The position numbers were made by a program, and so were the translations under genes. A stretch of DNA of 13,779 nucleotides from a virus (Duplodnaviria; Heunggongvirae; Uroviricota; Caudoviricetes), in IMG/VR virus record IMGVR_UViG_2534682222_000007, positions 1-13,779 of that record; one strand, written 5' to 3'. A model generated the notes under the pieces. It ran no database searches, was not told where the DNA came from, and was given only the letters and a program-made list of their open reading frames with translations. This document shows positions 5,430 through 7,049 of this stretch, in pieces (positions within the stretch are counted from its first letter, which is position 1; each line of letters opens with the position of its first letter).

Positions 5430-7049
5430 TTAAGCCTGGTTGTTAAAACTGGTGACCTGACGCTTGCCGGACTGGAACGGAGCCCAGGTGGCAGCAGGAT
5501 CGCCTTCGAAGGTGCTGATCTGGCGACCGGTCGCATCAGCGCGTTTAATTTCGCGCAGCATACCAGGGCCAACAGACAGGCTTGCCGATTTCTGCGCGTC
5601 GGCGTAGATCGTCTTCTCGGCCACGCTCAGCAGGGCTGAGTCAGCGATAGAGGACAGGTCGACGGTTTTGAAATCAGGCGAATGCTCCTGAAGCTGGATC
5701 ATCAGGCGGCGGCGATATGCCAGCGGCTTTTCACCAGACAGCGGTACCGGCGCGCGCTTGCCGAAGCATGAGAACACGCTATCAGCCTTCACCTGTGCAT
5801 CGGCGACTTCGTTGCGCTCTTCATCGCTCAACTCGGTTGGGATGCGGGAGCGCAGGTCGGCGATCTCCTGGCGCAGCTGAGAGTCAGCTTTTTCTTTCGC
5901 CATACGTTCGGCCTCTTCGGCGTCGGCCTTCTCTTTGGCTTCAGCGTCTGCTTTTTCTTTCGCGGCTTTCTCTTCCGCGTCAGCTTTGGCTTTCGCCTCT
6001 TCGGCCTCTTTTGCCTCAGCATCAGCCTTTTCTTTCTTGGCTGCTTCTTCGGCATCGGCCTTGGCCTTCAGGTCTGCTGCTTCTGCGTCAGCCTTAGCCA
6101 TGCGTGCGTCAATCGCCTTATTGATTAGCGCTACGATTTTTTCCTCGTCCATCTTTTCAGCCTCGTTTGGAATGGAATCAGATTTAACACCAGTAGGGGC
6201 AAGGAGCTTGTCCCATACGCCCTGTTCACAAATTGCAACGTGGTCGAGCAATACCGGGGAACCTTCCACCAATAGAGGCTGACCGTCGATTTTGATGATT
6301 GAGTCCTGCATTTCGCTGTACGTGACGGTTGGTGAGGTACTCAGCTGCCGTGTCGCCATAATTTCGGCGGCTTCAGCGTCGTACACCCGGGCAATAGCCC
6401 AGACCTCGCCATTATCAGCAACCCAACTGTTCGTCAGGGTGCCGATAACACGCTTCGCAAATTCATCGCTATCGAGCTTGTTTTTCTCCGGGTGCAGCCA
6501 GATAAGCGGTACACCGGCAACTCGCTGGAGAAACTCTGGAGTGAGATAGTCGTCCGGGTTACGGAAGGCCATCTGTTGATCTGCAGAGCGCCAGGTAACC
6601 CCTGTTCCGGTTACCCGGATGGCGAACATCCACATGTTGATAAAGAATTGCGGGCTGCTTAGCGTCCCGTCAGCGATGAGCGCGGCCACCTCGGTTTCAT
6701 TGAGCGCCTGCTGCGCCAGCATCTCAGCAAAGGGCTGATGAAGCGGTTTGGGCATGTCTTCAATGTGGAACCACCCGGCGGCCAGTGATTCATCGTTAAG
6801 TTTCGCCTCGAACTTTTCCTGCACTTCGGCGCGAAACGTCAGATAATCGCCGTAAACGCTGTGCGGGGTCAGCGGGCCATCGTACTGATAACCCACCTCT
6901 TCCAGCACTTCGCGGCGCGCGGCATCAATAGCCAACTCGCCCGGCTCTACTGTACCGCCAGGCGGGCACCACGTACCATCATCCGAGCGCTGGATCAGGA
7001 AGACGAACTTACCCTGACGGAACATTATCCCGCTGCCAAAAATAGCCAC
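5430..7049 (-). CDS. Nudix hydrolase domain fused to a scaffold-like protein with a coiled-coil KADAEE repeat region (539 aa)
   Basis: Residues 32-54 ([23 protein letters not shown]) match the Nudix box GX5EX7REUXEEXGU exactly, with Nudix-like flanks ([20 protein letters not shown] upstream, [11 protein letters not shown] downstream). Residues about 317-390 are a charged Ala/Lys/Glu/Asp repeat typical of scaffolding proteins. The start is GTG at 7047-7049 with AGGAG about 9 nt upstream; the first ATG is at 7025. Confidence 0.65.
5880..6101. repeat. Imperfect coding tandem repeats encoding the KADAE(E/A)-rich coiled-coil segment of the scaffold-like protein
   Basis: The DNA shows reiterated gcgtcagcYttggc / gcatcagcctttt units, and the protein shows repeated [18 protein letters not shown]. 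The same low-complexity stretch produces the overlapping ORFs 5828..6055(-), 5935..6282(+) and 5717..6097(+) in the track. Confidence 0.6.

Follow-up and report, generated by a model that had tools for sequence, protein, structure and literature searches.

A conserved internal start codon suggests a nested scaffold gene within the Nudix-protease-scaffold gene of an Escherichia coli prophage and its relatives

The window analysed here, a stretch of 13,779 nucleotides (nt) that makes up positions 1 to 13,779 of the IMG/VR virus record IMGVR_UViG_2534682222_000007, is a prophage 100% identical to a part of an E. coli chromosome (strain KCJ3K291, NZ_CP054407.1). In its head module it carries an open reading frame (ORF) of 539 amino acids (aa), in which an N-terminal capsid-maturation protease and a C-terminal putative scaffold region are encoded in one frame, as in the known nested protease/scaffold pairs. 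In RefSeq the same gene of E. coli chromosomes is described as one coding sequence (CDS), 'NUDIX domain-containing protein'. The question raised by this locus is whether such a gene yields one protein or two. Comparison with related genes suggests that it very probably makes two proteins with a common C-terminus in one reading frame, the shorter of them from an internal start at a conserved ATG.

The candidate internal start codon is that of Met300 at positions 6150-6152, which had been singled out in a sequence-only reading of the window together with a GAGG located about 8-9 nt upstream. Both elements are read directly from the minus strand (...CCAAAC GAG GCT GAA AAG ATG GAC GAG GAA AAA...), the spacer being 8 nt. 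The location of the site at the boundary between the central domain and a helical repeat agrees with structure prediction by AlphaFold2, in which a disordered linker follows the central domain after approximately residue 292 and the first helix of the shorter product begins at its residue 3. The expected product of about 240 aa is encodable as well, the nested ORF from 6152 to 5430 having exactly this length. Coordinates of these and other features are given in Table 1.

Relatives with about 40% protein identity to the query were collected as two sets. The protein set consisted of 149 representatives of clusters formed at 50% identity, and the DNA set of 290 additional loci drawn from collections of viruses and genomes, of which 284 were usable and were reduced to 77 non-redundant loci (below ~80% identity). 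The Met300 column does not vary among seven phage homologues, the most distant of which has 41% identity, although it lies amid a poorly conserved linker. At the respective boundary column, Met is found in 127 and Val in 10 of the 149 representatives, and most of the others have a Met one or few residues off. On the DNA level, the boundary codon is ATG at 68 and GTG at 9 of the 77 non-redundant loci, and thus conservation of the internal start, which the sequence-only reading had proposed to examine along with that of its Shine-Dalgarno (SD) sequence, extends to all 77. Within the clade of the window, codon 300 is ATG in all 82 sequences.

The loci with valine at the boundary demonstrate the same preference for initiating codons. 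In all ten of them, belonging to about six lineages as grouped by linker similarity, the boundary valine is encoded by GTG, and the adjacent valines, as well as the valine of the conserved P-x-G-V motif, use GTC, GTA or GTT. The share of GTG among the Val codons of these genes is ~30-60%, and arithmetic from these counts gives a chance of ~0.003 for an all-GTG column. The exclusive use of GTG is not explained by protein need, because a protein that needed Met or Val here would be served as well by the valine codons that cannot initiate translation; a single 539-aa product leaves it without explanation.

The upstream element is conserved in a similar manner. An SD-like motif (GAGG, GGAG, GGAGG, AGGTGA or AAGGA) occurs 6-10 nt upstream of the boundary codon in nearly all clades, and the residues that it encodes differ. 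In particular, GAGG is embedded in the codons for N-E-A-E-K in the clade of the window, AGGTGA in those for T-G-E-I-E in the clade of Rac-SA53-like sequences, AGGAG in those for T-G-D-P-E in QDWS-like sequences, and, in other loci, GGAGG and GAAGGAG in those for S-G-G-N-T and E-G-D-S-K, respectively. In a fairly large subgroup the motif is no more than a weak CAGGAA. For 86% of the 77 genes, the SD score of the site is in the top quartile among the in-frame positions of the same gene (Kolmogorov-Smirnov p 3e-30), and resampling of synonymous codons gave a combined p of 6e-4 over these genes. The persistence of SD motifs under differing amino acids does not follow from the synthesis of a single product.

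Examination of individual codons revealed that those forming the SD sequence are frozen. Glu296 is encoded by GAG in all 82 sequences of the window's clade; among 40 conserved Glu columns there are three with a fixed codon, and Glu296 is the only one fixed as GAG. Similarly, all 57 sequences of the Rac-SA53-like clade have GGT for Gly186, where it forms the AGGTGA located 7 nt before the ATG, and this is the sole single-codon column among 21 conserved Gly columns. Such fixation of the SD-forming Glu and Gly codons in two independent, well-sampled clades is again unaccounted for if the gene has a single product.

Constraint at the nucleotide level is also seen in the variation of synonymous sites around the boundary. 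In a codon alignment of 82 distinct CDS from the window's clade (73-99% protein identity), synonymous heterozygosity drops to ~0.09 in a trough that ends six codons past Met300, versus ~0.35 gene-wide, and the other low stretch of the gene is formed by codons 1-20. As a control, 77 loci were aligned over 7.6 kb, comprising 8 genes and ~2460 codons. Bins of ten codons with values of 0.11 or less were confined to three places: the beginning of the portal gene, that of the 539-aa gene, and the internal trough. The trough therefore points to selection beyond the protein sequence in this region.

A natural separation of the two parts is found in an Anaerolineales contig (CAISEG010000110.1, positions 57-2033; locus L200), in which an in-frame TAA stands between the protease and the scaffold region. 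It is followed by an ATG, with the arrangement TAAGGAG, 8 nt, ATG, so that a scaffold ORF of 288 aa begins 12 nt past the stop, at the same boundary as Met300, and the Nudix-protease ORF ends with a divergent tail of ~35 aa. In L200 at least, the scaffold region would have to be translated on its own. A stop codon, a canonical ribosome-binding site (RBS) and an ATG at this very boundary are not explained by the single-product reading. Other interrupted copies were considered as splits and rejected: L156, L157 and L163 carry IS110-family insertions instead, and L179, L158 and L142 are frameshifted or truncated. The IS110-family transposase is inserted at approximately codon 202 of a Rac-SA53-like homologue in several prophage copies (L156:3130-4326, L157, L163:1075-2271), just downstream of the internal start, leaving a remnant of the scaffold ORF.

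The internal start separates protein regions of different character. The N-terminal Nudix domain has an intact Nudix box in the translation, G32-x5-E38-x7-R46-E47-V-x-E50-E51-x-G53-Y (Y54), with profile matches to solved Nudix enzymes, and a sequence search of PDB gave Nudix enzymes only. For the middle part, an AlphaFold2 model of residues 113-305 is confident (predicted local distance difference test score, pLDDT, 89.4) up to approximately residue 292 and falls below 50 at residues 298-305. By a fold search, the modelled protease domain has the fold of T4 gp21 and assemblin; a Foldseek comparison of the same model with PDB produced nothing significant. Every alignment shows H186, S237, S239 and D269-H270 unchanged; these residues stand in the right order for a triad and are candidate catalytic residues. 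The precomputed domains of the identical protein P0001, and those of most close relatives, include PF09979 (DUF2213), and our own hmmscan (E <= 0.01) reported the NUDIX domain only. PHROG 530 and 2229 ('head maturation protease') match residues 159-415, and the complete protein matches PHROG 6216 over its whole length.

The linker that holds the internal RBS varies in both length and sequence across the family. In the AlphaFold2 model of the 240-aa product, the two long helices correspond to product residues 3-40 and 63-103, with pLDDT below 50 around residues 38-63. The compact C-terminal domain contains the motifs ADAQ.(K/R)ADSV and G(E)..(A)YRRRL, which recur across the family, and is presumed to bind the capsid interior. 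Foldseek comparison of the scaffold model with viral models gave no significant match.

Table 1. Location of the analysed features in the 13,779-nt window
Feature	Position	Strand	Basis
Internal start codon ATG (Met300)	6150..6152	minus	sequence
Internal Shine-Dalgarno GAGG	6161..6164	minus	8-nt spacer (ctgaaaag) to ATG
Putative nested cistron, 240-aa scaffold-only product, same C-terminus as full-length	5430..6152	minus	suggested by conserved start and RBS
Full-length ORF, 539 aa: Nudix, prohead protease (DUF2213), linker, putative scaffold	5430..7049	minus	ORF list, translation
Full-length start: AGGAG (7063..7059), 9-nt spacer, GTG (7049..7047)	7047..7063	minus	sequence
Synonymous-variation trough, codons 250-306, ends 6 codons past Met300	6132..6302	minus	82 CDS
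UCAGCCUC, perfect 8-nt complement of the SD segment GAGGCUGA (6164..6157)	6275..6282	minus	MFE (minimum free energy) and consensus folds
Nudix hydrolase domain, aa 9-112	6714..7025	minus	Pfam PF00293, E 8.7e-17
Prohead (capsid maturation) protease domain, DUF2213, aa 113-292	6174..6713	minus	
Disordered linker, aa 293-299, holding the internal ribosome-binding site	6153..6173	minus	pLDDT; variable across family
Two long Ala/Glu/Lys/Asp-rich helices, aa 302-339 and 362-402	5844..6146	minus	AlphaFold2 of 240-aa product
Compact conserved C-terminal domain, aa 409-524	5478..5825	minus	pLDDT > 90

The two start sites of the gene differ in their predicted strength. The full-length start has an SD pairing energy of -6.5 kcal/mol and a predicted mean unpaired probability of 0.32; its codon is GTG in 82 of 84 members of the clade and ATG in none. 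The internal start has an ATG, a pairing energy of -8.0 kcal/mol with the 3'-end of 16S rRNA, an unpaired probability of 0.53 and an A-rich downstream region, and is predicted to be among the best and strongest sites of the operon. These predictions fit the suggestion of the sequence-only reading that the short product may be abundant and the long one a minor species. The CDS of phage RothC is annotated from the ATG of Met9, not from the GTG.

The following mechanism could be proposed from these data. Initiation at the weak GTG at 7049 would give a chain of 539 aa (~59 kDa) with the order Nudix, protease, linker, scaffold, and independent initiation at the ATG at 6152 through the GAGG would give the last 240 aa (~26 kDa), that is, the scaffold alone. 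Both products would be drawn into the assembling procapsid because their C-terminus is common. The scaffold core would consist of the abundant short form, and the rare long form would bring the protease and the Nudix domain into the procapsid at low copy. Maturation would then involve digestion of the scaffold by this protease.

Two alternatives have to be weighed. According to the first of them, only the 539-aa protein is made, as in P2 gpO, Met300 being kept for protein reasons (for instance as a site of cleavage, or as the residue at which a scaffold released by self-cleavage begins) and the SD-like string being a by-product of the Gly/Glu/Asp-rich linker. A precedent exists, since P2 gpO is a working protease-scaffold fusion without an internal start, according to the summary in bioRxiv 10.64898/2026.09.13.751334. 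Several observations weigh against our interpretation here. The gene contains 27 in-frame ATG, GTG and TTG codons, two of which, TTG267 and ATG383, show SD pairing energies comparable to that of the internal site, so that this site is unremarkable in the present gene alone. The coding sequence is purine-rich, which favours SD-like motifs in general, and the Gly, Glu and Asp codons of the linker yield SD-like strings; resampling of synonymous codons in single sequences is mostly non-significant (median p 0.33). The case for more than chance therefore rests on the comparison with relatives. In this comparison the boundary codon was mostly defined as the first Met 10-42 residues past the GVWDK motif, the Val cases being assigned by hand, which is somewhat circular; an independent protein alignment gives the same column. 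L200 is a single split example from a metagenome-assembled contig that could contain an assembly error, and for this reason it counts as no more than one supporting case. Finally, the assignment of the C-terminal 240 aa to a scaffold, and with it the proposed digestion of this part, draws on gene position, helical shape and analogy. Nevertheless, the all-GTG valines, the frozen codons, the SD motifs under changing residues and the split locus make it improbable that the single fusion protein is the whole output of the gene.

According to the second alternative, the constraint at 6132-6302 reflects another overlapping element, such as a regulatory RNA, a protein-binding site, a +1-frame ORF or a recombination junction, and the ATG is incidental. 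The trough of ~170 nt indeed far exceeds the length needed for an RBS, which explains it only in part, and the broad trough is not seen in the Rac-SA53-like clade, where only the SD codon is frozen; both facts add to the difficulties listed above. A +1-frame ORF (6238..6131, open to ~6340) runs across the trough in the window, but its start and stop shift or vanish within the clade and there is no conserved start codon, and it was rejected as the cause. An RNA element or a promoter fares no better: the fold at the trough is not more stable than that of shuffled sequences (MFE z -0.53), the consensus fold shows no covariation, no Rfam match at E <= 1 was found within 5900-6500, and no sigma-70 promoter within 5400-7200. 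The correlation of pairwise distances between the flanks is at its lowest at the trough (0.33), and recombination therefore seems to occur there. A shared mobile segment was rejected as the source of the trough, the trough segment occurring in homologous genes only. None of the explanations examined covers the trough over its whole extent. Most importantly, the start codon and the SD sequence are conserved also in clades without the trough, and for this reason an additional element could be added to the internal start but could not replace it. We regard it as very unlikely that such an element alone accounts for the conserved region.

One candidate for such an addition is the perfect 8-nt complement of the SD segment located 110 nt upstream of it. 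The two segments fall in two of the most constrained spots, and the complement persists in 13 of 14 clade members with no covariation; the pairing ranks only at the 6th percentile versus other positions of the gene. The complement could conceivably mask the SD sequence in a clade-specific manner. General masking of the SD sequence by upstream sequence was rejected, since across the family the SD segment is less complementary to the upstream region than other segments are. Elsewhere in the operon, reduced synonymous variation was also observed in codons 1-40 of the major capsid gene (3506-4537, minus strand) and codons 1-10 of the portal gene (7889-9307, minus strand), and the head-morphogenesis gene (7062-7892, minus strand) has a moderate synonymous dip at codons 121-160.

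A gene yielding two co-C-terminal proteins, as we propose, would not be without parallel. Nested protease/scaffold genes have been described for lambda C/Nu3 and for UL26/UL26.5 of herpes simplex virus 1, and in lambda an in-frame internal start in the protease gene C gives rise to the scaffold Nu3, which has the C-terminus of C in common, according to a recent account (bioRxiv 10.64898/2026.09.13.751334). The sequence-only reading had recognized in the present gene an echo of lambda C/Nu3 and of P2-like phages, which holds in part: the gene organisation of lambda is reproduced, whereas the protease fold is different and P2 gpO is not nested. Lambda C is a serine protease of the ClpP/SppA type (S49), with a fold other than that of gp21 and assemblin, and a Pfam scan of the 539-aa protein gave no Peptidase_S49 match. 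The present gene lies outside the S49 family, and thus its likeness to lambda C/Nu3 is one of gene organisation, not ancestry. P2 gpO combines an N-terminal protease and a C-terminal scaffold in one polypeptide, as is the case here. It differs in being one self-cleaving product with no nested start, as the same account describes it (bioRxiv 10.64898/2026.09.13.751334), while the present family has a conserved internal start and RBS.

Further parallels are found among viruses of other domains. In Haloferax tailed virus HFTV1, an internal in-frame start of the gp17/gp17.5 pair was demonstrated by ribosome profiling and LC-MS/MS (liquid chromatography with tandem mass spectrometry) (bioRxiv 10.64898/2026.09.13.751334). 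Like the gene considered here, gp17 was annotated as one protease/scaffold fusion, and it yields a more abundant C-terminal scaffold; in contrast to the present system, HFTV1 is an archaeal virus with other initiation signals and has no Nudix domain. In the UL26/UL26.5 locus of herpesviruses, a scaffold gene is nested within that of an assemblin protease-scaffold protein, whose protease has the fold modelled for the present one. The nested arrangement is conserved across herpesviruses, where the short form is made in ~10-fold larger amounts (PMC11565193). However, the herpesvirus short form has its own transcript and promoter, whereas here a bacterial SD sequence and an ATG would operate in a polycistronic message; herpesviruses also lack the Nudix domain, and their sequence identity to the present protein in structural alignments is 14-17%. 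The gp21 protease of T4 has the same protease fold with 9% sequence identity to the present protein. T4 encodes its scaffold core proteins as separate genes, including scaffold gene 22.

The family to which the 539-aa protein belongs is large. It comprises 2014 clusters at 50% identity (E <= 0.001), has members in 49 of 5426 complete E. coli genomes, and occurs also in cultured phages of Klebsiella, Yersinia, Pantoea and Shewanella and in many metagenomes. On the minus strand of the window the gene order is small and large terminase, portal (PF06381), head-morphogenesis protein (PHROG 324), the 539-aa gene, a gene for a 286-aa protein, and the major capsid gene, the latter identified by PHROG 6671 and 264 and a weak match to PF09950. 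The 539-aa gene thus sits in the head module between the portal and head-morphogenesis genes and the major capsid gene, and this order is kept in the Klebsiella phages Chronis and RothC/D, the Yersinia vB_YenM phages, Pantoea phage PdC23, Shewanella phage QDWS and Escherichia phage Rac-SA53. The 286-aa gene (4554-5414, minus strand), which follows the scaffold region and precedes the major capsid gene, gives a match to PHROG 6268; residues 169-248 of its product match a domain of tail-fibre and large virion structural proteins, and the homologue in PdC23 is annotated as 'endosialidase'. It may encode a capsid decoration or cement protein.

In database records the members of the family always appear as a single CDS, named 'NUDIX hydrolase', 'TolA protein', 'glycosyl transferase' or hypothetical protein. 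These annotations are inconsistent and probably wrong (phage records OM046621-OM046629, KU052037 and MN013086; RefSeq E. coli genomes), 'glycosyl transferase' being used for the Yersinia phages and 'TolA protein' for Rac-SA53. A note in the Rac-SA53 record says 'nudix', and the aligned protein begins at the protease domain and has no Nudix domain.

Most members of the family possess the N-terminal Nudix domain, and others have different domains or much longer extensions. In particular, P0305 (838 aa) carries PF03496 (ADP-ribosyltransferase exoenzyme) and a Nudix domain ahead of the protease domain, and P0143, P0151, P0211, P0240 and P0262 have other or larger N-terminal extensions, with 350-550 extra residues found in family members besides P0305. 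The nearest phage relatives of the Nudix domain itself are fused to head proteins (records H23-H33, from Burkholderia phages): it is joined to a protein annotated as portal in Bcep1, Bcep43, Bcep781 and BcepNY3, and to one annotated as 'head maturation protease' in BcepB1A. Fusion of Nudix domains to proteins of the capsid interior appears to recur, which suggests that the N-terminus of a capsid-targeted long product is a general position for cargo.

A tentative and rather doubtful extension of this idea is that the nested design acts as a dosing device. The rare full-length chain would load few active Nudix copies per procapsid, the protease would free this cargo, the virion would deliver it to the next host, and the constrained 170-nt segment would tune the ratio. 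If this is true, other N-terminal domains, such as the ADP-ribosyltransferase-like one, would be the cargo of the relatives, the delivered Nudix enzyme could destroy nucleotide-based immune signals or RNA caps, and in the window's clade the 170-nt segment together with the SD-masking complement would set the ratio of cargo chain to scaffold.

The nested protease/scaffold strategy as such is known, and in the literature on DUF2213, on Nudix and scaffold fusions and on related phages no nested scaffold start was found to be described for the present family; what is new is its proposed presence in this large family, annotated throughout as single genes. With this reading, these phages, the proposed Felixviridae among them, would gain the scaffold and protease genes that they had seemed to lack, and the nested strategy would reach another bacterial branch, whose protease has the assemblin fold found also in herpesviruses. 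The Nudix fusion in turn offers a case in which the loading of an enzyme into capsids can be tested, and the locus provides an example of how the comparison of synonymous sites and start codons may reveal hidden cistrons.

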